The position numbers and the translations under genes are program-made. Source: Candidatus Melainabacteria bacterium (lineage in GTDB: Bacteria > Cyanobacteriota > Vampirovibrionia > LMEP-6097). From it: 64,000 nucleotides of DNA. The first letter of the stretch is position 1, and each line of letters begins with the position of its first letter. The stretch spans positions 12,133 through 76,132 of the forward strand of contig JABHOV010000059.1 in assembly GCA_018695135.1 (NCBI GenBank), in the 5' to 3' direction. Under the pieces are notes generated by a model. That model was not told where the DNA came from. It ran no database searches and saw nothing but the letters and a program-made list of their open reading frames with translations. Below are positions 16,308 through 60,995 of this stretch, one piece after another.

Positions 16308-16397
16308 TGGGGTCGTATCCTGACATTGGACATTTCTACGGGTTAGGTATTATCACCTTGTTATTAGTTCAAAATGTCCAATGTCAGGATACGACCC
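16308..16397. repeat. Family 2 palindromic element: 26-bp arms GGGTCGTATCCTGACATTGGACATTT / reverse complement around a ~36-nt unique loop
   Basis: Exact inverted repeat; same arms at 47237-47325 and 54184-54276. Confidence 0.9.
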
Positions 16398-16451
16398 TGA
16401 TGGGTCATATGGACTATCTAGATATCCCAGTTAAAGCCGATTAACTATTAT

Positions 16452-17318
16452 ATGAATTTCTCTTTAATTAGAATAGTTGTGATGATCTCTATTTTGTTCT
16501 CCAGTTCAATGGCCCAGGCTGCTGAAACAGGGACCTCTGGTTTGAACCCGGAAACGCTTTCAGCCGGAATTGTTCATCAAGACGGCTACTACTTACCAAA
16601 AGGTATGCAAGTACCAATTAGTTTAAACACTCCGCTTGATACTAGGCTCACTCAAACTGGTGATCAGGTAACTGCACAAGTGACAGAAGATGTTTTGGTT
16701 GGTGACTATGTGATTATTCCAGCGAATAGTTTTGTGCATGGTTATATTTCTGAATTCAAGGGACCAGGCAATTGGGGCAGAGATCCTAAATTAGAAATTC
16801 AATTTGATACTATCTCGCTTCCTTCGGGAACGGATAGACGTTTTGTAAAGATCAAAGCAAGTGTCAAGGAGGTTGCTTTGCAAAGAAATAGCAAGCCAGT
16901 AACTGATGGCAGAATGACTTATAAATCGAAGAAAAAAATATTTGGTGCTACGGCAGGCGTTGGTGCTGCTGTCACAAGTTATGGTGTTATTGAGTTTGTA
17001 AGACCGTTTGCTAGCTACGGGATAGGAGGAATGTTAGACAATGTCTTCATTTTAGGTAGCGGGCTGACGGGGGCTTACCTAGCAACCAAAATGATTACAA
17101 AGGATGATATGCGAATTGAATCTGGCACAAGACTAGAAATGATTATGGACGCACCAGCACTCGAAACTTTTGCTGAGGCGCATGCTCTGTCACACAATTT
17201 AACTAAGGACCTTTCTGATGAAGAAGAATTGCAAACAGCCGTGAATGATGATCCAGGACTGGCTTATGACAAGATTGGTAATTTGGAATCGATTCCGCTT
17301 AATTATATAGAAAATTGA
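16452..17318 (+). CDS. Secreted hypothetical protein (signal peptide ..SSSMAQA)
   Basis: Long ORF with N-terminal signal. Confidence 0.45.
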   Translation: MNFSLIRIVVMISILFSSSMAQAAETGTSGLNPETLSAGIVHQDGYYLPKGMQVPISLNTPLDTRLTQTGDQVTAQVTEDVLVGDYVIIPANSFVHGYISEFKGPGNWGRDPKLEIQFDTISLPSGTDRRFVKIKASVKEVALQRNSKPVTDGRMTYKSKKKIFGATAGVGAAVTSYGVIEFVRPFASYGIGGMLDNVFILGSGLTGAYLATKMITKDDMRIESGTRLEMIMDAPALETFAEAHALSHNLTKDLSDEEELQTAVNDDPGLAYDKIGNLESIPLNYIEN

Positions 17319-17356
17319 AGTTCACCGATGCAGAGCATCGGTGATTAAAATCGGCA

Positions 17357-17389
17357 AAAAAAAGCTCACTCCGAAGAGTGAGCTTTTTA
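17357..17389. terminator. Bidirectional rho-independent terminator AAAAAAAAGCTCACTCCGAAGAGTGAGCTTTTT
   Basis: 8-bp GC-containing stem flanked by A-run and T-run between convergent genes. Confidence 0.8.
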
Positions 17390-17415
17390 GATAGTTTGCC
17401 ATTAAAGACTTGAAC

Positions 17416-17970
17416 TTACGCTTCGCTTTGAGTTTCTTCAGCAGCAGCTGGAGCAGCACTTTGTGGTGCAGTTACGTCAATGATTTTAACTTCAAAAGTA
17501 AGATCTTGACCAGCAAGTGGGTGGTTGTAATCCATTGTTACTTCTGTGTCAGAAACGCCAACTACTTTCATAGGTGTTTGTTTGACCTCACCTGTAGCAA
17601 GTTTGTTGTTTGCAAAAATAACCACGCCTTCTTTTAGATCAACACCTTTGAATCTTTCGTCTCTAGGAATTTTCACTACTTTGCTTGGATCAGCAACGCC
17701 ATAAGCATCTTCAGCCTTAAGTGTGAATTTGCCAGATTTGCCGGCGCTGATTTTTGCGATATGCTCTTCGAACTTAGGAAGCACTTGACCAGATCCCATA
17801 AGGAAACTAAGTGGTGCTTTACCATCTGTTGAATCAAAAACTGTACCGTCTTTGAGCGTACCTTTGTACTCTACTTTAACTACCGAACCACTTGTGATTT
17901 TTGGTGCTGTTGAACATGCAGTTATTGAGACTGCTAGTAACACTGCTACTAATAATTTTATTTGTTTCAT
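17416..17970 (-). CDS. FKBP-type peptidyl-prolyl isomerase lipoprotein (SlyD/FkpA-like)
   Basis: Lipobox LLAVSITAC, FKBP core residues, insert-in-flap layout. Confidence 0.75.
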   Translation of the reverse strand: MKQIKLLVAVLLAVSITACSTAPKITSGSVVKVEYKGTLKDGTVFDSTDGKAPLSFLMGSGQVLPKFEEHIAKISAGKSGKFTLKAEDAYGVADPSKVVKIPRDERFKGVDLKEGVVIFANNKLATGEVKQTPMKVVGVSDTEVTMDYNHPLAGQDLTFEVKIIDVTAPQSAAPAAAEETQSEA

Positions 17971-18111
17971 TTTGAAAAATACTCCTTGTATTTACTGATT
18001 GTCTTAAAAGACCACTTTAGTCTACAATACTATGAACCCATTTTCAAAGTTTTTTTGCAAAATTGAAGATTAAGATTTGCTGAGACTCGCCATGTTACAA
18101 TTCTTATCTGT

Positions 18112-18546
18112 ATGTTTAAGTTGGCATCATTACCTAATACAGATCAAATTCAGCATGTATTGCCACTAATGCAGGAAGGTCTTGAGCGTTTGCAAAAAAG
18201 CTATCTTGAACAAACAGTCCTGGCAGACCAGCTTCCCCTGAGACAACAACAAATATTGCATGCATCTAAGCCATTTTTGGATGATTCTGAAGATCTTCAG
18301 GGCTTGCATGATATTTTAAAAACTAATGTTGAAATGCAGCAAGAAACAATGAGTTTATTGGCGGCAGTTCAAAGCTTTGCAAGAAAATATATCATCGCTT
18401 TTGAGAAAGGACTCGTTTCAGCAACTGTGCCGGACAAACTATTCTCTTTGGCAGCAAACATAATGGCACATTTACGATCACCTATTAACCAGGTTATAAA
18501 AGAATCGGCGAGTGAGATTTCAAAGCACTTAGATACTGGTAATTAA
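18112..18546 (+). CDS. Hypothetical protein 144 aa
   Basis: ORF only. Confidence 0.35.
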   Translation: MFKLASLPNTDQIQHVLPLMQEGLERLQKSYLEQTVLADQLPLRQQQILHASKPFLDDSEDLQGLHDILKTNVEMQQETMSLLAAVQSFARKYIIAFEKGLVSATVPDKLFSLAANIMAHLRSPINQVIKESASEISKHLDTGN

Positions 18547-19181
18547 CCCACCATATCAACTGACTGATAATCCTCTCTTGCTAAATAATCACGCATAATG
18601 CTTTTGACATAGTTTTGAGTTTCTTTGTAAGGAGGAATGTCGCCGTGTCTTTCGACAGCTTGCGGACCGGCGTTATAGGCGGCAAGTGATTTTTGGAGAT
18701 TGCCATCAAATCGTTGCAGCATCTGCGCAAGATACTCTACTCCTCCTTTGAGGTTTTGATAAGGGTTCATTGAATTGTGTACACCAACTGACTTGGCTGT
18801 TGCTGGCATCAATTGCATCAAGCCTTCAGCGCCAGCATGACTCTTGGCATTTGGATTGAAGCCAGACTCTTGTTTGATAAGGCTTTTGACTAAGTTACTC
18901 GGTAGCTCCACACCATAGCGTAGACTAGTTTCATGAGTGACTTGATCGATATAGTTTTCAAACTTGCTTGGTAATTTAGAAAAATCATCTTGCTTAATAG
19001 TCGCTTTGACTGTTGCTCTGACTTCTTGAGTGTTGATACTGCTTTGTAGCAGATTTGCAAAACCACCAGCGATCGTTTTGCCTGGGTCATTTGCTTTAAA
19101 CTTGGCAGCAAATTTGTTGTCTATCTGATTTAGATAGTTATCAATTTGTGACAGTTTTTGTTGTATGAAATCTATTGACAT
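18543..19181 (-). CDS. Lytic transglycosylase (SLT domain)
   Basis: ESGFNPNAKSHAGAEGLMQLMPATA .. AYNAG motifs. Confidence 0.85.
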   Translation of the reverse strand: MSIDFIQQKLSQIDNYLNQIDNKFAAKFKANDPGKTIAGGFANLLQSSINTQEVRATVKATIKQDDFSKLPSKFENYIDQVTHETSLRYGVELPSNLVKSLIKQESGFNPNAKSHAGAEGLMQLMPATAKSVGVHNSMNPYQNLKGGVEYLAQMLQRFDGNLQKSLAAYNAGPQAVERHGDIPPYKETQNYVKSIMRDYLAREDYQSVDMVG

Positions 19182-19944: not shown

Positions 19945-20127
19945 ATGCTCCCCTTTGGTATCGGTATCCCTGAACTTATAGTTATCTTAGTGATAGCACT
20001 AATTATATTTGGGCCTAAAAAGCTTCCTGAGCTTGGCAAAAACCTTGGCAAGGGCTTGAAGAGCTTCAAGTCTGGTATGGAAGAAGCAACCGACGAATTT
20101 AAATCTGAAGTCAAAGATTCTGACTGA
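19945..20127 (+). CDS. tatA: Twin-arginine translocase subunit TatA/E
   Basis: [25 protein letters not shown]. Confidence 0.85.
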
Positions 20128-20130
20128 AAA

Positions 20131-20171
20131 GTCCCATCTGCTGTGTTACATCTTTTCGTCGTATTACGGGG
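20131..20171. repeat. Family 6 short repeat (reverse orientation of CCCCGTAATACGAYGAAAAGAYGTAACRCAGCAG)
   Basis: ~36/41 identity with 29619-29659. Confidence 0.7.
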
Positions 20172-20186
20172 TATTAAACAAGGATC

Positions 20187-27300: not shown

Positions 27301-28146
27301 TTGATCCGAGGGACTATACTTAATAGTACTTTGTTTAGGTATTTTGGGTTGATTTTGTTTTTGAGTTTGGCATCTGTCCAGGCTAAGCCATATTTGCCTG
27401 CTGATACTGAAGTGCTGGCACAAATCAATTCTTCTAAGAAGCTCAAGAAACTTAATGCAAGTTTGAAACAGGATCCAAACAATATTGATTTGGCTTATTT
27501 GCTTGCAAAGCAATATATTGCATTAGGCAAGGCCCAGGGGGACCCTCGTTACTATAGTTACGCTACGGCGAGCTTGGCTCCTTGGGCTAAGCAGAAAAAA
27601 AGTCCTCCGAGTATTAAATTATTGCTTGCTGATATAAAACAATATCAACACCGATTTAATGAAGCTTTGGAATTATTGGATGCGATTTTATTAGCGGAGT
27701 CAAATTATCAAGAAGCAATTTTGATGCGTGCTGCAATTTATACTGAGCTTGGTAAGTATTCGCGTTCTGATGATGACTGCCGCCAGCTTAAAGACCGTAG
27801 TCTTGAAACAACTTGTTTGGCTTTGAATAAGTTCCACAATGGCTATCCAGCAGAGGCTTATGATGATCTGCGGGACTTGAGTTTTGGTGATGATCAAGCT
27901 AGTCTTTGGTCACTTACTATCCTAGCTGAAATCACGGCACGCTTGGCAAAAACTGTAGAGGCTGAACGATATTATCAACAAGCACTTGCGATTAATAATA
28001 GTGATATTTATTTGCTTGGATCCTATGCTGATTTTCTTTTGGATCAAGCAGAGAATCAAGCGGTGATTGATTTACTGGAAGGGATGGAAGAGGTAGAGAG
28101 TTTGGCTTTGCGTTATAGGATGGCTCAAGGGGTGAATCATGATTAG
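27301..28146 (+). CDS. Secreted TPR-repeat protein
   Basis: Signal peptide; several 34-residue A/Y/L-patterned repeats. Confidence 0.65.
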   Translation: MIRGTILNSTLFRYFGLILFLSLASVQAKPYLPADTEVLAQINSSKKLKKLNASLKQDPNNIDLAYLLAKQYIALGKAQGDPRYYSYATASLAPWAKQKKSPPSIKLLLADIKQYQHRFNEALELLDAILLAESNYQEAILMRAAIYTELGKYSRSDDDCRQLKDRSLETTCLALNKFHNGYPAEAYDDLRDLSFGDDQASLWSLTILAEITARLAKTVEAERYYQQALAINNSDIYLLGSYADFLLDQAENQAVIDLLEGMEEVESLALRYRMAQGVNHD

Positions 28147-29374
28147 TTTAGTACTGGACTTCCTGCGCAAGTTTCGTTTTGCAGGATGTCTGCTGTTCTT
28201 GGTTTTGTTTGTGCTACCGGCGCAAGCACATAAGCCAAGCGAAAGTTTTTTGAAAATCCAAGCTGCTAGTCAAGCAATAACTATTGAGTGGGATGTTGCA
28301 ATTAGAGATTTGGATTATTTGATTGATTTGGATCTGAATAATGATTCTGAGATTAGTGGATTTGAATTTAAAAATCAAGAACAGAAGATCAGAGACTATT
28401 TGTTTTCACAAATTAAACTAGAGGCTTTTTCGAAGCCTGAATCAGTAGCTGCTCATCATCATGCGCATAGTCATGTTCATTCGTCTTCAGCTCATCACCA
28501 CGCGACTGGCTTGAAGAAATGGATAGGAGCTTATTGTAAGAGATCAGAGCAAGTTGACTTGTTGGTAGAAAAACATAGTGAGCTTAGTTATGTTGTTTTA
28601 TTGTTTGATTATCAATGTAGGCTTGAGCTTGATAAATTAAGCGTCGATTATAATTTACTGTTTGATGCTGACCCCGAACATAGGGCTTTAGTGAGTTTGG
28701 ATTATGACGGCAAGGTTCAAAGCTATGCCTTGACCAAAGATCAGCGGTATTTTAAAGCGAAGCTAGGCAATGTTGATTATAAATATCAGTTCTTGAATTT
28801 CTTAGATCAGGGGAAATGGCATATTTGGACTGGTTATGATCATATATTGTTTTTGCTTGCACTTTTATTGCCAGCTGTATTCGTTACAGGTAAAGGGAAG
28901 AAGAGAGAAGTAACTTTGAAATCAGTTTTTTGGACTGTTGTAAAAATAGTTACAGCATTTACAGTTGCACATTCCATTACTCTGTCTCTGGCAGCTTTAG
29001 AGATTGTTGAAGTTAATTCTCGCTTGGTTGAAATTTTAATTGCTTTGTCTGTTGCCTTCAGCGCTTTATTGAATTTAGTCCCTCGATCCCTTTTCTCTCT
29101 TCCCGTTACCCTTCTCCCTTTTTGTTTTGGTTTAATTCATGGCTTCGGTTTTGCTGGAGCTTTGCAAGATATTGGCTTGCCCTTGAAGGCTTTATTAGTT
29201 TCTTTGTTTAGCTTTAATCTTGGAGTGGAGCTTGGGCAGCTTGCAATTGTCGCTTGCTTTGTACCCATTGCCTATTGGCTTAGAGACACCTGGTTCTATC
29301 AGGTTATTGTTTTTAGGCTTGGTTCGCTTGCTATATTTGTGATGGCGATGTGGTGGTTTTTTGAGCGGTTATAG
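28139..29374 (+). CDS. HupE/UreJ-family membrane protein with periplasmic His-rich segment (AAHHHAHSHVHSSSAHHHATG)
   Basis: C-terminal TM region with HGFGFAG motif; signal peptide; overlaps upstream TPR gene. Confidence 0.6.
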   Translation: MISLVLDFLRKFRFAGCLLFLVLFVLPAQAHKPSESFLKIQAASQAITIEWDVAIRDLDYLIDLDLNNDSEISGFEFKNQEQKIRDYLFSQIKLEAFSKPESVAAHHHAHSHVHSSSAHHHATGLKKWIGAYCKRSEQVDLLVEKHSELSYVVLLFDYQCRLELDKLSVDYNLLFDADPEHRALVSLDYDGKVQSYALTKDQRYFKAKLGNVDYKYQFLNFLDQGKWHIWTGYDHILFLLALLLPAVFVTGKGKKREVTLKSVFWTVVKIVTAFTVAHSITLSLAALEIVEVNSRLVEILIALSVAFSALLNLVPRSLFSLPVTLLPFCFGLIHGFGFAGALQDIGLPLKALLVSLFSFNLGVELGQLAIVACFVPIAYWLRDTWFYQVIVFRLGSLAIFVMAMWWFFERL

Positions 29375-29575: not shown

Positions 29576-29618
29576 CAGGGTTGTTGAATACGCATAGTTT
29601 AGACAAGCCGAACTGATA

Positions 29619-29659
29619 CCCCGTAATACGATGAAAAGACGTAACGCAGCAGCTGGGGC
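29619..29659. repeat. Family 6 short repeat CCCCGTAATACGATGAAAAGACGTAACGCAGCAGCTGGGGC
   Basis: Near-identical to reverse complement of 20131-20171. Confidence 0.7.
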
Positions 29660-29672
29660 TTTGCAAGCAGAT

Positions 29673-31162: not shown

Positions 31163-31352
31163 CCACCCACGTTGAGCCTTCAGATAAGATCCCACCCGCT
31201 GCGTGACATACGCCACTTTTAAGATAAATCGTCTACACAATGGTATTTCTCTGTTGAGTCAGTTTTAGATATCATTTATCTTAAAAGTGGCGTATGTCAC
31301 GCAGCGGGTGGGATCTTATCTCAAAAAGTGGTAAAGGTTGAGACGTGGGTGG
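31163..31352. repeat. Family 4 palindromic element, copy B (~190 bp): termini CCACCCACGTTGAGCCTT / AAGGTTGAGACGTGGGTGG, 49-bp inner inverted repeat
   Basis: Read in sequence; shares 18-bp termini with 5911-6032. Confidence 0.85.
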
Positions 31353-34380: not shown

Positions 34381-34445
34381 GATTTTTGACATCCTTATTG
34401 ACGGCTCAGTCAACTCCGGTGTCAAAAATCTCCTCAGCCTTGTCT
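34381..34445. repeat. Family 5 repeat with nested inverted repeat GATTTTTGACA..TGTCAAAAATC
   Basis: Core ATTGACGGCTCAGTCAACTC shared with 58027-58046. Confidence 0.65.
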
Positions 34446-34472
34446 TTGAGAAAATTATCACCATCGCTTAGT

Positions 34473-35663
34473 ATGCTACTTCAATCTTCTTATTACTGTT
34501 TTCTCGCTTTCATCGCGTCAAGCTTTTTTAGTCCGACAGCTAGAACTATTTTCTTAGTTGCTGGATTGCTTTTGTGGGCTATTGCGTCGTGGCGAGAGCC
34601 AACAACATTTGCGTCAATCCAAGCTGGTCTTAGTAAGGACTTACAAGTATTAAACAGGCTGTTCATTATATATATTTGTGTCAATTCTGTTCTTGCGTAT
34701 ATGCATGACTTGAGTATTTTTGCCTGGATCAAAACATTGCTGGGTACTTATGCTCAATGGTTTTGGGCACTTGCTTTATTGGCTGGTCTCAAGTTTGATT
34801 TTCAAAACAAAATCAGGTTAACTGTAATTGGAGTATCATCATTTACTAGTGTGCTGATCGTGTTGCAGCTGATTGGTTTAGTACCGATGGTTGGAGATTA
34901 TTATGGAGTTTTGTCTCAGGCTTTTACTAGTTCTGGGATGATTTTGGTTGGTTTGTTTTTGAGCTTGGCTCAGTTTAAATCTATTCCTTCTACTAATAGA
35001 CTTACTGAGAAAGCCCCCTTTACTAATGGAACTAGTGCGCCGCACCGTTCCGACAATTACCGCTTTGCTTTTGGACTAGCCTCTTTTGTGCAACTGATCG
35101 CATTATTCGCTCTAGGACAGCGTTCTGTCTGGGCAGGTTTGATTTTGTCTCTATTGTTTTATTTGATTATGACTAAGCAATATCTCAAAAAGAGTTTTTG
35201 GCTTGCCTTGGTTCTTTTGATACTAACTGGCAGTTTTGTGATTTCAAGTTCTGAGCGTGTCGGTCGTAAAGTTGAGCGTTTTGCAAATCCTCATTATTGG
35301 ACTCAGGCTAACAGTATTAAAGTCAGACAAGAACTGTGGCAGATTAATAAAGAGGCGTGGCAAGCTAAGCCATTGACCGGAATTAATGAAATCATTAAGC
35401 ATGAGGGATTGAGGCATGCACACAATATTTATTTCCAGCAACTTTATACTGGTGGCTGGCTTAGATTTATTGCTTGGTTGAGTTTTTATTTAGTCGCGGG
35501 ATTCTTTTTGTTTCGTCGAATTACAACAGCGCCTGAGTTTTTTGCTATCTATATTGCGCTGAGTGCAGAAGGAGTTTTGGAGAATTGGTGGGGAGATAGC
35601 GAGGTTCTGAGCTTGTTTTTAGTGGCTTTGATATTGGGATTGGGGAAGAAATATAAGGAATAG
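34473..35663 (+). CDS. O-antigen ligase (WaaL/Wzy_C) family membrane protein; start moved past the repeat
   Basis: ~10 TM helices and AHNIYFQQL motif in periplasmic loop. Confidence 0.5.
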   Translation: MLLQSSYYCFLAFIASSFFSPTARTIFLVAGLLLWAIASWREPTTFASIQAGLSKDLQVLNRLFIIYICVNSVLAYMHDLSIFAWIKTLLGTYAQWFWALALLAGLKFDFQNKIRLTVIGVSSFTSVLIVLQLIGLVPMVGDYYGVLSQAFTSSGMILVGLFLSLAQFKSIPSTNRLTEKAPFTNGTSAPHRSDNYRFAFGLASFVQLIALFALGQRSVWAGLILSLLFYLIMTKQYLKKSFWLALVLLILTGSFVISSSERVGRKVERFANPHYWTQANSIKVRQELWQINKEAWQAKPLTGINEIIKHEGLRHAHNIYFQQLYTGGWLRFIAWLSFYLVAGFFLFRRITTAPEFFAIYIALSAEGVLENWWGDSEVLSLFLVALILGLGKKYKE

Positions 35664-36685: not shown

Positions 36686-38338
36686 ATGTCAGTCCTGGGG
36701 CTAAGATATTTCACAGCTTTATTATTAATACTTTACTTAAGTTCTTGTAGCTTATTCCAGAAACCAATTGCAGCTGTAACTGGTGATCCACTTGCCACAG
36801 AAGCTGCTACCAAGATTTTGAAACAAGGTGGTACGGCTGCTGATGCCTTTATCACAGCGGTTTTGGTGCTTACTAACGTTGAGCCGCAAGCCTCTGGTTT
36901 AGGTGGTGGATTTTTTGCGATTTATTATGATGCCAAAGCTAAAAGAACCTATGCTCTTGACGCTAGAGAAGAGCAACCACGTAATCTAAGCCAGGATATA
37001 TTTTGGGATTATTCTCGGGGCAAGCCCAAGCTGGGATGGTTTACTAGTGGCGCTAGTATTGGAGTGCCTGGAGTTGCTGATGGTATGGCTGTTTTGCATA
37101 AGCATTTTGGTAAACTTGGTCGAGACGAGATTGTTCAACCAGCACTCGCAATTGCAGAGAATGGCTTTGAAGTGACGGAGTATTTTTATATGCTCTTGCA
37201 AAAATATTCAGACTTGCATCCATGGGGAGATTATCAAATTGGTGATCAGTTTATTAATAAGGATTACGCTGGGACACTCAAGTTGCTTGCCGTTAATGGT
37301 TTTGAAGCCTTTTATAATGGGGCTTTGGCTGAAGCGATAGTCCAGCTTGGTCAGGAAGGTAAGATGCCTAGTGCCATGGATATTGATGACCTCAAGAACT
37401 ATAGAGCAGTTTTTCGCCAGCCGCAAATCTATAACTACGGGCAGTATCAAATAGTGAGTATTGGTTCACCGAGTTCAGGTTCTTCTACTTTGTATCGTAT
37501 TTTTGATTTGGTTTTTGCTGGTATTGATGAATATAAAGCGATTGATGCATCTTACAAAATACGGAACACAAGTTTTGGAGACGAGGATTTTACTGAAAGT
37601 GAATGTCGAGTGAAGGAAGATGCTTTTGAGAATTTGAGTGAGCTTGATAGTTTTACTAGTTCCGTTAGTGAAGAGCAAGGGGACTTTGCTAGTGAGTTGC
37701 ATGAGGAAAAAGGCACCACTCATATTGCTATCACTGATCGTTATGGTAATGCAATTAGCGGGACAGTAACTATTCAGAGTGCCTTTGGCAGTGGGCGTTT
37801 GCTGCCAGGCTATGGTTTTCTTTTGAATAATGAGTTGAGTGATTTTGATCCTAAGCGCGGTAAATGTAATTCAATTCAAAGCTGGCGTAGATTACGTGCC
37901 GGTGCAATTGGACTAACGAGTGATGGGCAAGAAGCTAACAAGACTTATGGTGCTAAGAGACCAAGGTCGTCTATGACACCGATGATAGTTTTTGAAGCTC
38001 AAGCAGAACGCGAGATTGATAGTTTGGAAGCTGAGCCAGATGAAACTAATGCTGGGATATCTAGTTTGTCTAAGCCGGTTATGATATTGGGTGCGTCAGG
38101 TGGTTGGACTATTATTAATTCGGTTTATCAGGTTTTTACTAACATAATTGATAGTGATATGAATCTAGAAGCTGCAATTCAAGCTCCTCGTGTTTTTATT
38201 AAGGGTGATGGCAAGCTTTATGATGAGTCTGAACTGAGCTTTCCGACAGCCGTCAACGGCATTGTGATTAACGGCAATGATTTATCTGCCTATGCCGATA
38301 AACGCAAGAACGGTTCAGCGCAAGTAGATTTGTTTTGA
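36686..38338 (+). CDS. ggt: Gamma-glutamyltranspeptidase, lipoprotein
   Basis: Autoprocessing TTH site and GSG..FLLNNE..DF motifs; lipobox LSSCS. Confidence 0.85.
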   Translation: MSVLGLRYFTALLLILYLSSCSLFQKPIAAVTGDPLATEAATKILKQGGTAADAFITAVLVLTNVEPQASGLGGGFFAIYYDAKAKRTYALDAREEQPRNLSQDIFWDYSRGKPKLGWFTSGASIGVPGVADGMAVLHKHFGKLGRDEIVQPALAIAENGFEVTEYFYMLLQKYSDLHPWGDYQIGDQFINKDYAGTLKLLAVNGFEAFYNGALAEAIVQLGQEGKMPSAMDIDDLKNYRAVFRQPQIYNYGQYQIVSIGSPSSGSSTLYRIFDLVFAGIDEYKAIDASYKIRNTSFGDEDFTESECRVKEDAFENLSELDSFTSSVSEEQGDFASELHEEKGTTHIAITDRYGNAISGTVTIQSAFGSGRLLPGYGFLLNNELSDFDPKRGKCNSIQSWRRLRAGAIGLTSDGQEANKTYGAKRPRSSMTPMIVFEAQAEREIDSLEAEPDETNAGISSLSKPVMILGASGGWTIINSVYQVFTNIIDSDMNLEAAIQAPRVFIKGDGKLYDESELSFPTAVNGIVINGNDLSAYADKRKNGSAQVDLF

Positions 38339-38376: not shown

Positions 38377-39414
38377 ATGCGTTACCTCTGCTTGATTCTA
38401 TTATTGTTTAGCTCTTCTGCTTGTTCTAAAAAAGCTGCCCCGGTTGCTGCCGTAAAACCATTATTTGTCAAAGCAGAAGCTGCAACTACCGGTGATATAG
38501 AGCGTGCCTTTGAAACGGCTGGTGAACTGAAAGCGGATAAAGAGATTTTGGTTGCAGCTGAGCGGCCGGGGATGGTCAAAGAGATTTATGTGCGTGAAGG
38601 ACAATGGGTTAAGGCAGGTCAGGCTTTGATTCAAATAGAGGGTAAGGATGTTGATGCTGATTTAAAAAAAGCACAAAGTGATTTTGCTTCTTACCAAAAC
38701 CTGTTTGATCAGGGAGCTATTTCTAAACAAGAACTAATTAATTATGAAGCTCAACTGCGTAGAGTCGAGTCACAGATTGATAATCTCCAGATTAATGCAA
38801 TTAGTTCTGGATTTATTGGGGTGATATATGTTGATCCTGGTGACTATGTTAAACGAGGTGATAAGATTCTGGATTTGGTTAAGATTTATCCATTGAGAGT
38901 GAGTTATTCGGTGCCAGAGAAATTGATCTCCAAAATTTTAATTGGACAAAGCGTAGAACTACGTACTGACTCAGAAGCTGGCAAGGTTTTTAATGCAAGT
39001 GTTGATTTTATTTCACCAAGAGTTGATCCTAATACTAGAGCGGTTTTAGTTCGCGGGAAAATCAATAGCCCAAGTACTAATCTCAAAGCTAATCAGTTTG
39101 TTACTGTCAAACAAGTTATTAATAGTTCTAATACGACTTTATTGGTGAGAGAAGAAGCGCTCTATCTTAATCAAGGACAGGAGTATTTGTATCTCGCGTC
39201 GTCATTGCGAGCCGAGGCGAAGCAAGCTAATGTAGAGACTCCGGAGATCGACGCGTCTGATGAACTTGTAGCCAAACGTGTAGCTGTAAAAACCGGTCAG
39301 AGACAAGAAGGCATGGTAGAAATTTTAGAAGGTATTGAAGCTGGTGACAATGTGATCTATGCTGGTTTGCATAGTATTTATCCTGGGGCTAAGTTGGTTT
39401 TGGTTAGTGACTAA
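38377..39414 (+). CDS. RND efflux periplasmic adaptor (membrane fusion protein), lipoprotein; contains family-3 repeat fragment
   Basis: Lipobox SSSAC, coiled-coil hairpin, lipoyl and beta-barrel segments. Confidence 0.8.
   Translation: MRYLCLILLLFSSSACSKKAAPVAAVKPLFVKAEAATTGDIERAFETAGELKADKEILVAAERPGMVKEIYVREGQWVKAGQALIQIEGKDVDADLKKAQSDFASYQNLFDQGAISKQELINYEAQLRRVESQIDNLQINAISSGFIGVIYVDPGDYVKRGDKILDLVKIYPLRVSYSVPEKLISKILIGQSVELRTDSEAGKVFNASVDFISPRVDPNTRAVLVRGKINSPSTNLKANQFVTVKQVINSSNTTLLVREEALYLNQGQEYLYLASSLRAEAKQANVETPEIDASDELVAKRVAVKTGQRQEGMVEILEGIEAGDNVIYAGLHSIYPGAKLVLVSD
39193..39260. repeat. Family 3 repeat fragment inside adaptor ORF (..TCGCGTCGTCATTGCGAGCCGAGGCGAAGCAAGCTAATG..CGACGCG)
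   Basis: Left arm near-identical to 51136-51167. Confidence 0.75.
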
Positions 39415-45661: not shown

Positions 45662-47236
45662 ATGTCTAATTTTCGTTATCGCAGCATACAAATACTCATT
45701 GCTTTAGCATTTCTTGCTATCTTGGGACGTTTATTTCAATTTCAAATTCTTAATGGGCAAAAATATTCTGCTTACATTAAGCGCTATGGACAGACCTACA
45801 AAATTAGTCCTGCAAGAGCAGAGATTGTTGATCGTAACGACAAAGTACTTGCTTTGGATTTGATGAAATATACACTTGAATATAATCCCGTGACTACTAG
45901 TGAGGATAGAGGCATGCTTGCTTTCAAACTAGAGCAAATGATTGATTTGAAAGATCCAGAAGATCTCAATGCTAGTTATAGTAAGACTCTTGCGCATGGT
46001 TTGAGTCGCGAACAGGCAAACAAAATTAGGAAGCTTGATTCCAAATTATTATACTTGCGTCAAGTTAGGCGCAGATTTTATCCACAAGATGAGCTGGCTT
46101 CTCATGTGCTTGGCTATGTTGATCTTTATGGACAAGCAAGGCAAGGTATTGAAGCTGACTATCAAAAGAGATTAGAAGAAGACTCAGAGAACAAGCTTAG
46201 ATTGAGCTTGGATTCTCGCTTGCAAGTTTTTGCCGAAACAGAATTAAAGAAGCGAATTGCTGAAACGAAGGCGGCAAGAGGGACTGTTTTGTTAATGGAA
46301 GTTGCTACTGGACAAATGATGGCAATGGCTACTAGCCCAGGATTCAATCCTAATAACTATTTTGATTTTAGTTTGTCACAAATTAAAAACTGGCCTTTGG
46401 TTGATGTCTATCAACCGGGTTCTATTTTTAAGATAGTGACAGTGGCATCTGCCCTAGAGTCTGGGACTATAGATTTGAGTCATCGTTTTGTAGATGAAGG
46501 CTTTTTGGAGATTGATAAATGGAAAATCAAAAATCATGAATACAAACTAGGTAAGACTGAGGCTGAGGAATTGAATCTGCAAAACTTGTTTGAACGATCA
46601 AGTAATACTTTTGCTGCACATCTGGCACTAGCAATGGGTCCTAAGGTTTTTCATGATCAGATTAGCAAGTTTGGCTTTGGGCAAAAAACGGGGATCGAAT
46701 TAAGTGGGGAGTCCAAGGGTATTTTGCTTAAGCACAAAAAATGGCGTAAGTCCGATACTGCAACTACAGGCATGGGTCATGGTGCCATTTCTGTTACTCC
46801 GTTACAGTTGCTGGCAGCAGCTAATGTCATTGCCAATGACGGTCATTGGGCTAGACCGACTTTGTTTCTTGATTCTAAACAGCCGTTGGCTGAAGAGCTT
46901 GAACCAATTATCAGTGCTGAGCATGCTTATAGTATTAGAAATCTTTTGGCAAGAGCCATTGATCACAATTTGAAATTCAAATCTAGCGTGGCTGGACGTG
47001 TTGATAATTTGACGATAGCTGGTAAAACTGGCACAGCAGAGAAAATCAAAGCAGGTGGAGGCTACTCCAAAAAAGAAACAGTCGCTTCTTTCTTAGGTTT
47101 CTTCCCGGCTTATAATCCAAAATATATCGCCTTAGTTGTAATTGATGATCCCAAGACTGATGGTCGTTGGGGTGATACTGTGGCTGGACCTTTGTTTAAC
47201 AAGATTGCTGCTTACACTAGAGACTTGTATTTATAA
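45662..47236 (+). CDS. Penicillin-binding protein, FtsI/PBP2-type transpeptidase
   Basis: N-terminal TM anchor, SIFK (SxxK), KTGTAE. Confidence 0.85.
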   Translation: MSNFRYRSIQILIALAFLAILGRLFQFQILNGQKYSAYIKRYGQTYKISPARAEIVDRNDKVLALDLMKYTLEYNPVTTSEDRGMLAFKLEQMIDLKDPEDLNASYSKTLAHGLSREQANKIRKLDSKLLYLRQVRRRFYPQDELASHVLGYVDLYGQARQGIEADYQKRLEEDSENKLRLSLDSRLQVFAETELKKRIAETKAARGTVLLMEVATGQMMAMATSPGFNPNNYFDFSLSQIKNWPLVDVYQPGSIFKIVTVASALESGTIDLSHRFVDEGFLEIDKWKIKNHEYKLGKTEAEELNLQNLFERSSNTFAAHLALAMGPKVFHDQISKFGFGQKTGIELSGESKGILLKHKKWRKSDTATTGMGHGAISVTPLQLLAAANVIANDGHWARPTLFLDSKQPLAEELEPIISAEHAYSIRNLLARAIDHNLKFKSSVAGRVDNLTIAGKTGTAEKIKAGGGYSKKETVASFLGFFPAYNPKYIALVVIDDPKTDGRWGDTVAGPLFNKIAAYTRDLYL

Positions 47237-47325
47237 GGGTCGTATCCTGTCATCTGACATTTCAATGTATTACAAACGATCTTAATTAGTGATACACTGA
47301 AATGTCAGATGACAGGATACGACCC
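47237..47325. repeat. Family 2 palindromic element, variant arms GGGTCGTATCCTGTCATCTGACATTT with three compensatory changes in the partner arm
   Basis: Both arms read in sequence. Confidence 0.9.
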
Positions 47326-47871
47326 TGTTTGGCGCAGGAAATCTTCATGTGCATTTTTATTGGTGTAGTTGGTAACGCGCAAATAAGCTGACCAAGGTAT
47401 TTGATTTTCGCTTGCAACTTTGGCTATACCGTAGAGCTCCATGTTTTCTATAATTGCGTCTGTTTGATAATGTTTAATAATTTGTTTGGAGATAGTCTCG
47501 TCTTGAGTGATTTCAAGACTTGAGAGGCATAAAATATTCTTTGAATCTGGATGACTGGCGTGAAGAATAGGATAAATATCTTTGATAGTGTAGCTAAGTC
47601 CTTGAACTGATCCGAGATTTAAAAGAGCTGCAGCACTAACTATGATTTGCTCGCCAATCTTGATATTTTGGCTATAGGCACCGGCTGTGCCAGTAAAGAT
47701 GATTTCGGAGATATCGTTTCTTGATTGAAGTAGTTTAGAGAGATTGACAGCTGCTTCAAGATAGCCAATGCCAAGTACCTCTAAAATATGGGTTTTACTG
47801 GTTAAATAGGGCAAATCCGCTGGATTCTCTGCTAGTTCGTTTTTGCAGGCTGCGCAAATAAGGCTTGTCAT
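47305..47871 (-). CDS. PNP/MTAN-family nucleosidase, possible futalosine hydrolase MqnB
   Basis: Short 188-aa MTAN-like layout (..IIFTGTAGAY..). Confidence 0.55.
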   Translation of the reverse strand: MTSLICAACKNELAENPADLPYLTSKTHILEVLGIGYLEAAVNLSKLLQSRNDISEIIFTGTAGAYSQNIKIGEQIIVSAAALLNLGSVQGLSYTIKDIYPILHASHPDSKNILCLSSLEITQDETISKQIIKHYQTDAIIENMELYGIAKVASENQIPWSAYLRVTNYTNKNAHEDFLRQTGSYPVI

Positions 47872-50052: not shown

Positions 50053-51344
50053 TGGACGCAGCGACGATTAATGAAACGATTAAGGCTTGTATTCATTGCG
50101 GTATCTGCCTGCCAGCCTGCCCGACTTATCAGGTAACAGGTAATGAAGGACATTCGCCGCGTGGAAGATTGTACTTAATTAATGATCTCTTGACTAATGA
50201 GACTGGAGCCAGGGAAGATGTCGTTGAGTATTTGGATGGCTGCCTTGAATGCTCCGCCTGTGAAACGGTCTGTCCATCAGGTGTTGACTATGTCAATATT
50301 CTTGAATATGCTCGCCATGAATTGGGTCTGAGCAATTACACTAAGGGCTTTATGGCTGCTGTTAGACGCCTGGTGTTCCAGTATTTATTGCCGAATAGAG
50401 TCTTGTTGAATCTGGCAAGAGTGATGGGGCGTTTTTTGCCTTTGCGGTTATTCAATAAGCTAGCGCCGGGTTTTGATTTTGAATACAAAAAAATCAAGAC
50501 GGATTATATTTATAAATCTCAAAGTCGGACTTCGCGGACAGTCTCCATGCCACTGGGTTGTGTAATGGATACGATTTATAATGATGTGCATTGGGATAGT
50601 ATTCAAGTACTCAACGCTTTTGGTTATGATGTCTATATACCTGAAACTCAGTGCTGCGGTGCTCTTGCTTATCATAGTGGTGAAAACAAACTTGGTGAAA
50701 AACAGCTTGAGGAAACCACGTCGATACTAGCTAAGCATCAGTATCCAGTAGTAATGAACTCAGCGGGTTGTGGGGCTTTTATTAAAAATCATTCTGATTT
50801 AGAATCGATGGATTTAATTGAGGCTTTGAAACAAGCACCGTCATTGCGAGGAGCAGACGCGGCGCGGCAATCTAACGCAGGGGACTGGATTGCCACGCAC
50901 TCTTTGAGTGCTCGCAATGATGAAATAATTTATGCCGTTTACCACCCTGCCTGTCATCTCAATCATAAGCAAGGAGTCTCGCAAGACTATGTTGAATTGT
51001 TGAAAAGAATCCCAAGTTTGGAATTAATACCACTACATGAAGCAGACCTTTGTTGCGGCTCGGCTGGATTTTATAATTTAATTCAAAGCAAGCTTGCTGG
51101 TGAGATTGGTAAACGTAAGGCAGAGAATATTACATCGTCATTGCGAGCGTTAGCGAAGCAATCTAATGCAAGATCCAAGGGCGCGGCAATTAAATTCTCT
51201 GTATTAGATTGCTTCGCTAACGCTCGCAATGACGTGATTGTACTTACTGCAAATCCCGGTTGCATGTCTCAAATCCAAGCTCACTTGGGTGATGAATATC
51301 AAGTTATGCATCCTATTAGTTTGATTAAGCAATACTTGAATTAG
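50052..51344 (+). CDS. glcF: Glycolate oxidase iron-sulfur subunit GlcF-like with two in-frame family-3 repeat insertions
   Basis: Two CxxCxxCxxxCP ferredoxin motifs, two CCG domains. Confidence 0.8.
   Translation: MDAATINETIKACIHCGICLPACPTYQVTGNEGHSPRGRLYLINDLLTNETGAREDVVEYLDGCLECSACETVCPSGVDYVNILEYARHELGLSNYTKGFMAAVRRLVFQYLLPNRVLLNLARVMGRFLPLRLFNKLAPGFDFEYKKIKTDYIYKSQSRTSRTVSMPLGCVMDTIYNDVHWDSIQVLNAFGYDVYIPETQCCGALAYHSGENKLGEKQLEETTSILAKHQYPVVMNSAGCGAFIKNHSDLESMDLIEALKQAPSLRGADAARQSNAGDWIATHSLSARNDEIIYAVYHPACHLNHKQGVSQDYVELLKRIPSLELIPLHEADLCCGSAGFYNLIQSKLAGEIGKRKAENITSSLRALAKQSNARSKGAAIKFSVLDCFANARNDVIVLTANPGCMSQIQAHLGDEYQVMHPISLIKQYLN
50839..50922. repeat. Family 3 palindromic repeat, copy inside GlcF (CGTCATTGCGAG..CTCGCAATGATG)
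   Basis: Arms CATTGCGAG/CTCGCAATG with nested GGCAATC/GATTGCC. Confidence 0.8.
51136..51234. repeat. Family 3 palindromic repeat, full copy: 32-bp perfect arms CGTCATTGCGAGCGTTAGCGAAGCAATCTAAT / ATTAGATTGCTTCGCTAACGCTCGCAATGACG
   Basis: Read in sequence; in frame in GlcF. Confidence 0.9.
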
Positions 51345-54160: not shown

Positions 54161-54183
54161 AGTGAAAAAGATTGTATCACATA

Positions 54184-54276
54184 GGGTCGTATCCTGACAT
54201 TGGACATTTGCTACACTATATATTATCCGCTGGGCAAAGTTATTTAACTAAAATGTCCAATGTCAGGATACGACCC
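54184..54276. repeat. Family 2 palindromic element, third copy
   Basis: Same 26-bp arms as 16308-16397. Confidence 0.9.
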
Positions 54277-54280
54277 TACT

Positions 54281-57620: not shown

Positions 57621-57974
57621 ATGAGACACCAAATAAAGAAAAATAGAATGAATAGACCTGCCGATCAGCGTAAAGCTGCTCTAAGGGCTCTTGCAACATG
57701 TTTACTTCGTGAAAAACAAATCAACACTACTATGGCTAACGCCAAAGCAGTTGCTCCTGAAATCGATAGATTGATTGGACTTGCTGTTCGTGGTGATCTT
57801 CACGCTCGTCGCCAAGTTGCTTCTTTTATTTATGATAAAGATGTAGTCAAAGATTTATTTGCCAATATTGCTGAAAGATATAAAGAACGTAAGTCTGGTG
57901 GATTTACACGTATTGTCAAAGATGGTTTCCGTCGTGGTGATAATGCGCCTAAAGCAATCATTCAACTAGTCTAA
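57621..57974 (+). CDS. rplQ: 50S ribosomal protein L17
   Basis: MRHQIKKNRMNRPADQRKAALRAL. Confidence 0.95.
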   Translation: MRHQIKKNRMNRPADQRKAALRALATCLLREKQINTTMANAKAVAPEIDRLIGLAVRGDLHARRQVASFIYDKDVVKDLFANIAERYKERKSGGFTRIVKDGFRRGDNAPKAIIQLV

Positions 57975-58102
57975 AACTTGCTCTGAGAACTCGATAACTT
58001 CGTTACGCTCGCCCTAATAAGTCATCATTGACGGCTCAGTCAACTCAGCCTTATTAGAACTTCGCAAGCCTCGTTCTCGAGACCTCATAGCAAGTTTGGT
58101 AT
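57975..58102. repeat. Family 5 repeat embedded in a nested palindrome (outer AAACTTGCT..AGCAAGTTT, inner CTAATAAG..CTTATTAG) filling the rplQ-GNAT intergenic region
   Basis: Core ATTGACGGCTCAGTCAACTC at 58027-58046. Confidence 0.65.
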
Positions 58103-58109: not shown

Positions 58110-58682
58110 ATGAAAGTACGAAAACTAACAACAGATTACTTCAACCAAGTACATGATCTGATCAAGTTTTATTCTGAGCGTCGTTTGATGTTGCCACTTA
58201 GTCTTGATGAGCTTTATCATAGAGCGCAGGCTTATCGAATTATTGTAGGGGACAGCGATAGACATCCTGCAAAACAAGGTTTTGCTAGTGATGTCGCCAC
58301 AAAAGAGGTCGGAATCATGCGGAGCATGTGTTCCGCTAAGGGAAATGAGTTAGACCTTGGCAAGAAGCCTATGGGGACAGTCCTTGCTTGCGCTCATCTC
58401 GATATTTTTACACCACAACTCGCTGAAATCAAAAGCCTTGCTGTTATTGAAACGGAGCATGGTAAAGGCTATGGTAAGACTTTAGTCATGGATTGTGAGC
58501 AAGATGCCAAGGCTATTGGTATCAAGAAGCTTTTTGTCTTAACTTACCAACAGGATTTTTTTACTAAGCTCGGTTACCAGGTTGTTGATCGTAATACTTT
58601 GCCTGAGAAGGTCTATAAAGAATGCATCAAATGTAGCTATTTCGATGATTGTAATGAAATTGCGATGGTTAAGAGCCTCTAG
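58110..58682 (+). CDS. GNAT family N-acetyltransferase with in-frame family-1 repeat
   Basis: Acetyl-CoA binding ..EHGKGYGKTLV.. motif A. Confidence 0.75.
   Translation: MKVRKLTTDYFNQVHDLIKFYSERRLMLPLSLDELYHRAQAYRIIVGDSDRHPAKQGFASDVATKEVGIMRSMCSAKGNELDLGKKPMGTVLACAHLDIFTPQLAEIKSLAVIETEHGKGYGKTLVMDCEQDAKAIGIKKLFVLTYQQDFFTKLGYQVVDRNTLPEKVYKECIKCSYFDDCNEIAMVKSL
58255..58370. repeat. Family 1 structured repeat inserted in frame in GNAT ORF (encodes ..DRHPAKQGFASDVATKEVGIMRSMCSAKGNELDLGKKPMG..)
   Basis: Core CCTGCAAAAC-AAG-GTTTTGCTAGTGATGTCGCCACAAAAGAGGTCGGAATCATGCGGAGCATGTGTTCC. Confidence 0.85.
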
Positions 58683-58736: not shown

Positions 58737-60995
58737 ATGGTTATCAAATTTGACGGTGAATATGCTGATTATGGTGAAGGTTTTGAAAAAACCGGTAATA
58801 GTCGTCGCAAATTTAAAGGAAGTGAAAAGTCTACAGGCAGTCAAAAAAATCGAGAGGGAGATAGAGCATCCAAAAGAGTGTCTCATCGATCTAGTGGAGC
58901 CGCAAAGCAAAGAACTGAACGAGAAATAGAAAGCCATTTTATACAACTAACAAAAACAGCCCAAAAGATATGGAAGCCATTATTGTCCAAAGTTGACAGA
59001 CAGGCAGAGTTTTGGAAGGAGATAGAGGAAGGTCATAGACCTACTAAATTTGAGGCTACTAAAGCATCAGAAAGAGCATTTATTACAGCAGCCAAATATT
59101 CAAAATTCTTTTTGCAAAATCATTCAGGTTTAAATATCAAGAATTTGGGTGCATTGATGAAAGGCTTTGGTGCTTGTTCTTACGATTATGACGCTAGTGA
59201 TCCTAGGCAGTCAACTGAAGTCAGAGCTTTCTTGCATGAGTTAGAGCGGGTTTTGCCAGGTATTAATGAAGTAGATTCGCACAGTTTATCTCATATCATT
59301 TATAGCTTAAGTAATTTGGATAATAGTGATATTCCTAAATCTCTTGTTACAGAGTTGGCGAAGAAAGTTGAAGAATCTCCGGATAACTGGTCTTTGTTAG
59401 ATGTTTCAATGGCGCTTTTTGGTATTAAGACGATAGCAGATGATGAGGTTCAAGATATTTTTAATATGATTGTCTCCAAATTGACTCACCAGTCCAAGCT
59501 AGATATTGATGCAGCAGGTTTGATCAAGGCTATAAAGGATAGACCACCGGCACTTATAAAAGACTTGTCGGATAAATTACAACAGCTCTTGACACAGAGC
59601 GTGTTTAATCAAATGTCTGAAAAGGATTTAGCCAATACTGCTGATGCTATAGCTGGTTTACCTGAATCTGCTTGCCCTGAGTTGTTCCAGCGTGTGTGGT
59701 CACAATGGCAGCGCGTTGAGTCTCCAGCCATATTAGCTTCAATGCTGCATTCATTTACTAAATACAATGACAATACTAGCTGCCAGTATGTCAAAGAGAT
59801 AGCTAACAAGATCAGCGAGGCAGAAAAGAATTTTACGACTATCGATATAGCGAGATGTTTTATAGGCTTGAAAGCAAAAACGTTTTCAGGCATGGATGCT
59901 TTTATTATTGATTTGACACAAGCTTTAAAGAAAGTTGCCCATCAATTAGATCCTAAGAGATTTGGGCAGATTCTTAATGCTTGTCTTTCTTTTTGTCCAA
60001 AGAGTTATGCAGAGTTGTATCAAGTTCTTGCTGATGCCTTAAGCAGCGGCTTGAAGATAAGCATTCCTAGTATTGTATCTTCAGCAATGTTGGGACTTTT
60101 AAAAAAAGATCCAGCAATGGTTGAACCATTATTACAAGAGCTAGAGAAACAACTTGATCAGAATATTAATTCAATGGGATTAGTTGAGATCTCAGATATT
60201 TTTTATGCTTTGACTTATAATACCAGTGCTACTGCAACAAGCATTAGAAGCAAACTTAAGACAAGATTGGAGACTGTAGTTAATGCGAATTTGGGAATGT
60301 CACCGGCAGAGGTTTATAAAGCTCTCTCTAAGATTTGTTATGGCGCACGTTTTGATGATCGACATCTAGCAGTAGCTACTAGTGTATTGTCTACAATGTT
60401 GCAATCAGACCAGGAATTACCTACTGAAGCTATTACATATGCTGCTATTGTAAGTGGTTTGCGCTTGAATCCCTCAAAGCACTCTGCTTTGCTTGATATC
60501 TTAGAGCAAAATCCATTGAATAACAAAGATGATCAAGCCTTGTTATTAAGAGAATTAGTGCTCTTGCAGTTTGCTGGCAAGGGCAAGATTGCTTGTGAGG
60601 AGAAGTTATCAAGCTTGATTTGCAAGCTTCAAGAAGGTTTGGACAATGAGATAGATACTCCAAATATATCAGGATCATCATTTGAAGCTATGGTTTTTGC
60701 TGATTTAACTCGCTTGCAACCTAATCTCAACTTTAGTGCAACTAAGTATGTGGATGGCTTTGAAATGGATATTTATCTACCAGACTTGAAAATAAATCTG
60801 GAAGTTGATGGACCTTATCATAAGCTTGAGCTAGTAAAAAAAGACAATCAAATGCGAGATGATTATTTACAAGAGACTTATGGAATTGAGACTTATAGAG
60901 TAGCTTTAGATTCGGAGGGCAAGATGACAGCGAAGGAAGTAGCTTTGCAGATGGAAAAACATCTACAGACTCGTCTTCGCCGTAGTCAAGCTTAA
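58737..60995 (+). CDS. Large helical-repeat protein with C-terminal RAP-like domain (FASTK-like, eukaryote-type)
   Basis: C-terminal ..FEMDIYLPDLKINLEVDGPYH.. resembles RAP domain core (IEVDGPSHF); basic N-terminus. Confidence 0.45.
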   Translation: MVIKFDGEYADYGEGFEKTGNSRRKFKGSEKSTGSQKNREGDRASKRVSHRSSGAAKQRTEREIESHFIQLTKTAQKIWKPLLSKVDRQAEFWKEIEEGHRPTKFEATKASERAFITAAKYSKFFLQNHSGLNIKNLGALMKGFGACSYDYDASDPRQSTEVRAFLHELERVLPGINEVDSHSLSHIIYSLSNLDNSDIPKSLVTELAKKVEESPDNWSLLDVSMALFGIKTIADDEVQDIFNMIVSKLTHQSKLDIDAAGLIKAIKDRPPALIKDLSDKLQQLLTQSVFNQMSEKDLANTADAIAGLPESACPELFQRVWSQWQRVESPAILASMLHSFTKYNDNTSCQYVKEIANKISEAEKNFTTIDIARCFIGLKAKTFSGMDAFIIDLTQALKKVAHQLDPKRFGQILNACLSFCPKSYAELYQVLADALSSGLKISIPSIVSSAMLGLLKKDPAMVEPLLQELEKQLDQNINSMGLVEISDIFYALTYNTSATATSIRSKLKTRLETVVNANLGMSPAEVYKALSKICYGARFDDRHLAVATSVLSTMLQSDQELPTEAITYAAIVSGLRLNPSKHSALLDILEQNPLNNKDDQALLLRELVLLQFAGKGKIACEEKLSSLICKLQEGLDNEIDTPNISGSSFEAMVFADLTRLQPNLNFSATKYVDGFEMDIYLPDLKINLEVDGPYHKLELVKKDNQMRDDYLQETYGIETYRVALDSEGKMTAKEVALQMEKHLQTRLRRSQA

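Follow-up and report, generated by a model that had tools for sequence, protein, structure and literature searches.

The stretch analyzed here, called the window below, comprises 64,000 nucleotides from Candidatus Melainabacteria bacterium (GenBank assembly GCA_018695135.1, contig JABHOV010000059.1, positions 12,133 to 76,132 of the forward strand), and the feature under study is a short hairpin-containing repeat that lies inside an acetyltransferase gene. The gene (58110–58682, + strand) comes after rpoA and rplQ and encodes a 190-aa GNAT N-acetyltransferase of the ArgA-like short type, with matches to PF00583 (Acetyltransf_1), to NF005840 at 4.7e-44, and to PDB entry 5yge at 9.5e-08. The nearest named homologs are found in metagenome-assembled genomes (MAGs) of Cyanobacteria and Melainabacteria. 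The match to NF005840 (153 positions) is split at profile positions 50/51 and resumes at residue 89 with profile position 51. Insert-free orthologs (73–82% identity, 150–152 aa) have 4 residues at the beta2-beta3 turn, where 44 are present here; 37 of these 44 (residues 51–87) are supplied by the repeat. This agrees with a preliminary description of the locus, made from the sequence alone, in which an insert of ~40 residues was said to replace a 3–4-residue loop of the GNAT fold. AlphaFold modeling, which the same description had proposed, gave an intact GNAT core with pLDDT >90 and an insert modeled as coil with pLDDT 47–70 between strands 42–47 and 90–101.

The focal copy of the repeat spans 58259–58371 (+ strand), TA included at both ends, as delimited by nhmmer and covariance-model matches and by two alignments (A2 and A9); these bounds nearly coincide with the 58255–58370 of the preliminary description. 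The net in-frame insert in the open reading frame (ORF) is 58260–58370, that is, 111 nt or 37 codons. A unit of 113 nt was derived from the 32 distinct full-length copies in A2: TAGACATCCTGCAAAAC-NNN-GTTTTGCTAGTGATGTCGACACAAAAAAGGTCGGAACGGTGC-NNN-GCACTAGTTCCGTTAGTAAAGATAAAGGGAACTTTCGCAGGAAGTCTA. From left to right the consensus consists of TA, a 14-nt left inverted repeat that doubles as the 5' arm of hairpin 1, a 15-nt A-rich linker, hairpin 2, a 20-nt spacer, the right inverted repeat, and TA. Hairpin 1 of the focal copy (58261–58295, + strand) was predicted by folding to contain 15 bp, interrupted by two bulges of one base each, with AAG as its triloop at 58276–58278; it reads GACATCCT-GCAAAAC-AAG-GTTTTGC-TAGT-GATGTC. 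Hairpin 2 (58310–58335, + strand) is present as a variant with the inner stem CATGC/GCATG and reads CGGAAT-CATGC-GGA-GCATG-T-GTTCCG. The hairpin 1 and hairpin 2 motifs had 0.00 expected occurrences each in 100 shuffles of the window. With DNA folding parameters the two internal hairpins were favored over an end-to-end stem, and the right end formed no hairpin of its own in either DNA or RNA folds.

The ends of the element are imperfect terminal inverted repeats (TIRs) of 16 nt (TAGACATCCTGCAAAA / TTTCGCAGGAAGTCTA). In the focal copy the left TIR (58259–58274, + strand) matches the consensus exactly, and the right TIR (58356–58371, + strand) has decayed, reading CTTGGCAAGAAGCCTA where the consensus from A2 has CTTTCGCAGGAAGTCTA. 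Over the 32 copies the TIRs were 79.8% complementary, compared with 28–44% when the partner was slid, and they exhibited no covariation. Complementary yet noncovarying repeats have the look expected of protein-binding ends. TA was present at both ends in 22–26 of the 32 copies. The TIRs, the small size, and the TA ends together give the anatomy of a miniature inverted-repeat element (MITE). The 113-nt consensus is too small for a transposase gene (a 183-nt composite variant also exists), and the copies are dispersed over unrelated loci with differing flanks. The earlier characterization of the feature as a structured dispersed repeat thus holds, but it had missed the TIR-bounded, MITE-like unit of 113 nt, of which the hairpins are only the interior.

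Three full copies and three remnants of the element were found in the window; a repeat search returned three direct copies, each 94 nt or longer, with starts at 11448, 14547, and 58254. Copy 1 (11453–11565, + strand) is full length with a good right TIR and is intergenic or inside short ORFs only. Copy 2 (14552–14664, + strand) lies in frame, and in the same frame as the focal copy, in a Fic-domain ORF (13770–14987). The loop of hairpin 1 is TTT in copy 1, ATG in copy 2, and AAG in copy 3, the focal one; the preliminary description had reported the same repeat with these different loops, and the identity of the three was confirmed with the bounds given above. A reverse remnant that retains linker, hairpin 2, and right TIR (34992–35055, − strand) is in frame in a Wzy_C membrane ORF (34386–35663). 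A right-half remnant (37655–37698, + strand) is in frame in a gamma-glutamyltranspeptidase ORF (36686–38338), where it encodes TSSVSEEQGDF. The third remnant is an internal-deletion derivative of 38 nt (28155–28192, − strand) made up of left TIR, GAAA, and right TIR, and is located in the N-terminal region of a HupE/UreJ ORF (28139–29374).

Outside the window, ~40 further distinct copies were collected, all from non-photosynthetic, Melainabacteria-like Cyanobacteriota represented by metagenomes and MAGs. A scan of a genome collection gave four related copies in three MAGs, and a scan of metagenomes returned 69 loci, ~45 of them true copies. The NCBI MAG GCA_027618255.1 ("Cyanobacteria bacterium"; locus L084) carries three copies within 20 kb; the same locus holds, at 16412–18715, a DnaB helicase gene with an intein that contains a LAGLIDADG endonuclease domain according to precomputed Pfam matches. 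No match to the element was found in a plasmid collection. Three MAGs (loci L006–L009; CAZKAT01, CAYQSL01, and CAZELI01) are deposited as "uncultured Gammaproteobacteria bacterium." Their RecA proteins have Cyanobacteriota, Obscuribacterales, and Vampirovibrionales as the closest named homologs (71–84% identity), and on these grounds the label was rejected. The public records probably carry a wrong taxonomic name, and the three MAGs therefore give no evidence of spread across phyla. As far as these data go, the family appears confined to non-photosynthetic Cyanobacteriota.

A composite of 183 nt, in which hairpin 2 carries a 70-nt insert in its loop, occurs at two loci with differing flanks (L012 and L031), and so the composite has moved. 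The insert (L012 1553–1618, and L031) has a hairpin of its own (GGGTCTCTTGAGACCC) and is placed exactly in the hairpin 2 loop. To judge from these sequences, a nested insertion became part of the mobile unit. Mosaic loci were also observed: L021 compared with L059, and L043 compared with L050 and L060, have one flank and half of the element in common, and the other half and flank differ. These are either recombined copies or chimeric metagenome assemblies.

Hairpin 2 of copies 1 and 2 reads GGAAC-(G/T)GTGC-GAA-GCGC(T/C)-A-GTTCC. Relative to these, the focal copy has two pairs altered on both sides (G.T to C-G and G-C to A-T) and one T.G pair improved to T-A, in line with the preliminary claim that the pairs of hairpin 2 are kept by compensatory substitutions. 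The structure-aware alignment of more copies that had been suggested gave the same result, with pair-preserving substitutions in the further copies and subfamilies too. Over the 32 distinct copies in A2, 98.6% of the cells pair, and 7 of the 25 pairs change on both sides. This result was reached in none of 500 shuffles, and slid controls paired at 31–46%. A covariance-model alignment of 39 distinct copies, which leans toward structure because it was fitted to the structure, had 97.9% of its cells paired and 21 cells changed on both sides.

Hairpin 2, with both-sided changes in 6 of its 10 pairs, carries nearly all of the covariation signal. Four versions of its inner stem were found (GGTGC/GCACT, CATGC/GCATG, CGCAC/GTGCG, and CGCAAC/GTTGCG) and three of its outer stem (GGAAC/GTTCC, GGGAC/GTCCC, and GGCAAC/GTTGCC), together with a swap of the basal C-G pair to T-A. 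All versions have one shape, with 6 bp, a one-base 3' bulge, 5–6 bp, and a loop of 3–4 nt. The CATGC/GCATG variant of the focal copy is also present in L055 and L061. In hairpin 1, 99% of the cells were paired in 32–39 copies. Most of its columns are invariant, and columns 5–12 and 26–35 of the alignment are so among the metagenome copies because the search pattern fixed the outer flanks of hairpin 1 only. One of its pairs covaries, being A-T in most copies and G-C in the MAG copies, with G.T intermediates. The compensatory changes cluster in a few subfamilies, which indicates few independent events, about 5–7. The triloops have the highest entropy of all columns (1.82 and 1.20 bits), compared with 0.12–0.45 in the stems and linker, and despite this variability their length is held at 3 nt (3–4 nt in the hairpin 2 versions). 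Decay is 2–3 times faster in the right third of the element than in its left two thirds, and old copies within ORFs are no exception.

Selection need not be behind the pair-preserving changes; self-correction of the palindromes at the DNA level could also produce them. A switch of the nascent strand between the two arms as template, or gene conversion between arms, would restore complementarity in hairpins that have no function of their own within a mobile element. Such a process would account for stems that are near-perfectly complementary with both loops varying freely, and template switching would yield the reverse-complement triplets that are found in the loops (AAG/CTT, AAA/TTT, and AGA/TCT in loop 1; AGC/GCT in loop 2). 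The inverted repeats at the distant ends of the element, which are less able to self-correct, decay without compensation, as this explanation would have it. However, the bulge and the G.T pair of hairpin 2 are conserved and were not "corrected" to a perfect palindrome. Every stem variant is common to several loci and hence arose in source copies that were spreading, an observation that retention of the hairpins in spreading lineages fits equally well. On balance we regard self-correction, the chief rival account of the covariation, as unlikely, though by no means negligible.

The fate of the hairpins after insertion was followed at the GNAT locus itself, where three close orthologs retain the insert (L079, L080, and L081). 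In L079, a pair of the hairpin 2 inner stem is broken by a G-to-T change that has no compensating partner (CATTC/GCATG). L080 has a C-to-T change that gives a T.G pair in hairpin 1, and L081 has lost 51 nt in frame, from loop 1 through the 3' arm of hairpin 2, by which both hairpins are removed. At this locus the reading frame is maintained and the hairpins are not. The decay of the orthologous copies indicates that the hairpins belong to the element and not to the host gene. For self-correction the locus gives mixed evidence: the loss of hairpins from fixed copies is compatible with it, whereas the mismatch that stands uncorrected in the stem of the fixed L079 copy is not what it predicts. 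The proposal that the secondary structure is under selection or drives propagation therefore has to be divided; it applies to the lineages of the element, but not to the GNAT locus, given the stem break in L079 and the deletion in L081.

The same orthologs bear on the possibility that the host keeps the element for an RNA structure selected at the locus, be it for mRNA stability or processing, for a ribosome pause, or as a source of small RNAs. RNA folds of the three window copies were more stable than those of shuffled sequences (z −2.4 to −3.5), and copies of a Coxiella MITE yield small RNAs (PMC5896051). In the three orthologous copies, 3 of 71 non-loop bases in the left two thirds were changed, compared with 12 of 106 in the flanking coding sequence, a difference that is in the expected direction for such selection but is not significant. 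Against this stand the broken pair and the deletion of both hairpins with the frame kept, and the fact that copies occur on either strand, between genes, and inside genes unrelated to one another. The consensus RNA, moreover, prefers the end-to-end stem to the two hairpins (−37.5 compared with −28.8 kcal/mol). Rfam 15 gave no match at the gathering score for the whole window, nor any at E values up to 1 for 58150–58480. An RNA function at the locus is accordingly poorly supported, and we consider it very unlikely.

The consensus of the element is open in four of the six frames and encodes, in the frame that is used, the peptide RHPAKxxFASDVDTKKVGTVxSTSSVSKDKGNFRRKS. All of the ~17 copies well inside long ORFs are in this one frame. 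The reverse-oriented remnant in the Wzy_C gene, which is in another frame, is the only exception deep in an ORF; copies in other frames otherwise sit at ORF starts or are intergenic. This single-frame bias suggests filtering for a hydrophilic peptide that the host can tolerate. The host genes, assigned by Pfam, encode EPSP synthase, TsaE, PGI, an Asp/Glu racemase (MurI), VTC, UvrC, DUF561, and GGT. These are genuine enzymes, and the insert either splits their domain matches or is bridged by them; GNAT and Fic proteins are further hosts.

One frame and one orientation in all but one of the copies inside ORFs, and a peptide alignment in which R, P, A, K, A, S, and D are invariant, would also be found if the peptide itself (RHPAK..FASDVDTKKVGTV) were the unit, spread by domain shuffling as a module for targeting, protease recognition, or binding. 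This origin is contradicted by the pattern of conservation. The entropy in the used frame is 0.55, 0.56, and 0.63 bits at codon positions 1, 2, and 3, so that third positions are as conserved as first and second ones, and the stem swaps rewrite the peptide (GTVRS, GIMRS, and ATARS) while the base pairs are kept. Both observations place the conservation at the level of the DNA and not of the peptide. In addition, intergenic and reverse-strand copies occur, TIRs are present, and no structure is predicted for the peptide. Of 1.84 billion proteins covered by an exhaustive profile search with the peptide, only 14 representatives carried it, which shows that the family is narrow and likewise speaks against a protein module; a word-indexed protein search gave only four matches, a number that says little about breadth. 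A protein-module origin is thus poorly supported, and we find it hardly credible. The preliminary view that the peptide is not what is conserved was right in locating conservation in the DNA, but the peptide is not irrelevant, since one of the four open frames is nearly always used.

Two classes of palindromic repeats were considered for the element and rejected. The REP/BIME sequences, mobilized by RAYT proteins, are extragenic palindromes of 20–40 nt headed by GTAG or CGTC. The element studied here is a unit of 113 nt with TIRs, its hairpins start with GACATCC and CGGAAC, and many of its copies are intragenic. Palindrome-associated elements derived from IS200/IS605 have subterminal hairpins at both ends and no TIRs, whereas the right end of this element has no hairpin of its own and TIRs are present.

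The closest resemblance in behavior is to the Rickettsia palindromic elements (RPEs; RPE-1 etc., Ogata et al. 2000, via PMC10969869 and PMC3184786), which are likewise short (~105–150 bp), palindromic, and multicopy. As in the RPEs, a large share of the copies lies in frame inside unrelated housekeeping genes, and one conserved peptide encoded by the element forms a surface loop that the fold of the host protein can accommodate. In-frame insertion into unrelated genes with one conserved peptide was found here as well, and RPEs and other MITEs are known from the literature to fuse in frame with host ORFs (PMC10969869, PMC3184786). Unlike the RPEs, this element is hosted by a non-photosynthetic cyanobacterial lineage and has 16-nt TIRs with TA ends and two internal hairpins with hypervariable triloops. 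By analogy it appears to work like an RPE; we do not file it as a member of that group, as the likeness considered is one of behavior and the host is Cyanobacteriota-like.

Among other known systems, the cyanobacterial MITEs (Nezha of Anabaena/Nostoc and the MITEs of Anabaena PCC 7120; PMC3184786) belong to the same phylum, measure ~110–220 bp, and have TIRs and stable predicted folds. Fusions of the Anabaena MITEs with chromosomal ORFs have been reported, whereas dominant in-frame insertion is not reported for those families (PMC3184786). Nezha, compared by its description, differs in having the partner ISNpu3 with matching ends and demonstrated filled and empty sites (PMC3184786). The bcr1 element of the Bacillus cereus group (~155 bp; PMC3184786) is also mobile and keeps its structure across copies by compensatory pair changes. 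In contrast to the present element, which is often intragenic, bcr1 lies between genes, is transcribed, and has 5-bp direct repeats on either side. QMITE1 of Coxiella burnetii (PMC5896051) is a MITE too, often overlaps annotated ORFs, encodes short peptides, and is conserved between strains; at 300–400 bp, with promoters and small RNAs, it differs from the 113-nt unit described here. The family is new, and the phenomenon of in-frame palindromic mobile repeats is already known.

Taken together, these data are best explained by a mobile repeat that is non-autonomous, a MITE with the behavior of a Rickettsia palindromic element, of which the focal copy is now fixed and slowly decaying, and we assign this interpretation a probability of about 0.8. 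A transposase encoded elsewhere would bind the TIRs, insert the element at TA, and duplicate the TA; if the TA is duplicated, an enzyme of the IS630/Tc1 type would be expected. The net gain would then be 111 nt or 37 codons, and with the TA placed across two codons (xxT|Ann), those of the host would be left unchanged. In the GNAT gene the empty site was reconstructed as ...GGGGACAGCGA-TA-TGGGGACAGTC... An 8-nt direct repeat in the flanks (GGGGACAG) was tried as the target duplication and rejected; its copies are 125 nt apart and out of frame with the insert, and its absence from the orthologous copies L079, L080, and L081 indicates that it arose by chance. Insertions would survive only where a surface loop tolerates them, such as the beta2-beta3 turn of the GNAT fold, and apparently only in the frame that gives a hydrophilic peptide without predicted structure. 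The hairpins would be a property of the element DNA, or of its single strands during mobilization or replication. Lineages that spread would retain them, and after fixation in a gene they would no longer be maintained.

Several points weigh against this interpretation. A search of 0.35 Mb for an autonomous insertion sequence, taken as two inverted TIR matches separated by 0.4–4 kb and enclosing a gene, gave none. The TA could simply belong to the inverted repeat, and the closest empty GNAT sites are too diverged in their DNA to distinguish the two cases. The GNAT orthologs differ by 40 residues and not by 37; the remaining 3 were ascribed to variation in loop length. Many of the metagenome contigs are short, and some seem chimeric at the repeat (L021/L059, L043/L050). 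Plain insertion followed by neutral decay predicts neither the left-biased conservation nor the hypervariable triloops. Finally, classical TIR transposases need no internal hairpins, so that the role of the hairpins in spread is inferred. A different role would follow if the internal hairpins were needed in cis for mobilization via single-stranded DNA. The element would then represent a hybrid class that has TIRs yet is recognized by structure, and the hypervariable triloops would record hairpin-targeted mutation or loop inversion. The observations that hairpin 2 keeps its shape even though its sequence has been completely replaced, and that its loop accommodates a 70-nt insertion, bear on this idea, which we put forward as speculative and rather improbable. 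If it were true, the 37-residue loops would vary between copies at four codons, two straddling each triloop.

Further features were noted around the GNAT gene and elsewhere in the window. A separate palindromic element of 124 nt (57974–58097) occupies the rplQ-GNAT spacer immediately upstream of the gene; its terminal inverted repeats measure 25 nt (AAACTTGCTCTGAGAACTCGATAAC / GTTCTCGAGACCTCATAGCAAGTTT), and a 19-nt inverted repeat lies at its center. The length of the spacer is 135 nt in the window, compared with 66 nt in the ortholog locus L082, where the GNAT gene is without insert. Downstream of the gene, an ORF of 752 aa (58737–60995) has no Pfam or NCBIfam match and is conserved in L001 and L002 (756 aa). 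Palindromic repeat families are unusually abundant in the window. Another repeat of ~105 nt (GGGTCGTATCCTGACATTGGACATTT ... AAATGTCCAATGTCAGGATACGACCC) is present in three copies (16297–16405, 47224–47331, and 54171–54278) and also in L053, which duplicates part of the window. REP-like palindromes headed by CGTC (CGTCATTGCGAGC...GCTCGCAATGACG) lie at 39199–39238 and 51136–51234, with partial matches near 50820 and 53928 and others in L055 and L056, and resemble the CGTC-tagged REP superfamily (PMC3733652). Long inverted repeats were located at 31179–31324, 20119–20174, 29616–29671, and 5911–6032; they include 51-nt arms that are 98% complementary, related arms of 56 nt separated by 9.4 kb, and 41-nt arms that pair perfectly.

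Colonization of housekeeping genes in frame by a palindromic repeat is a textbook oddity of Rickettsia. With the present family it extends to an uncultivated, non-photosynthetic cyanobacterial lineage, where EPSP synthase, TsaE, PGI, MurI, UvrC, and GNAT are hit. The family provides an unusually clean contrast between covarying hairpins, noncovarying TIRs, and hypervariable triloops. Because the peptide of 37 residues splits domain matches, MAG annotation pipelines may miscall such genes. The clear ends of the element make the family tractable for the study of its spread, of survival in a single frame, and of the entry of new surface loops into proteins.

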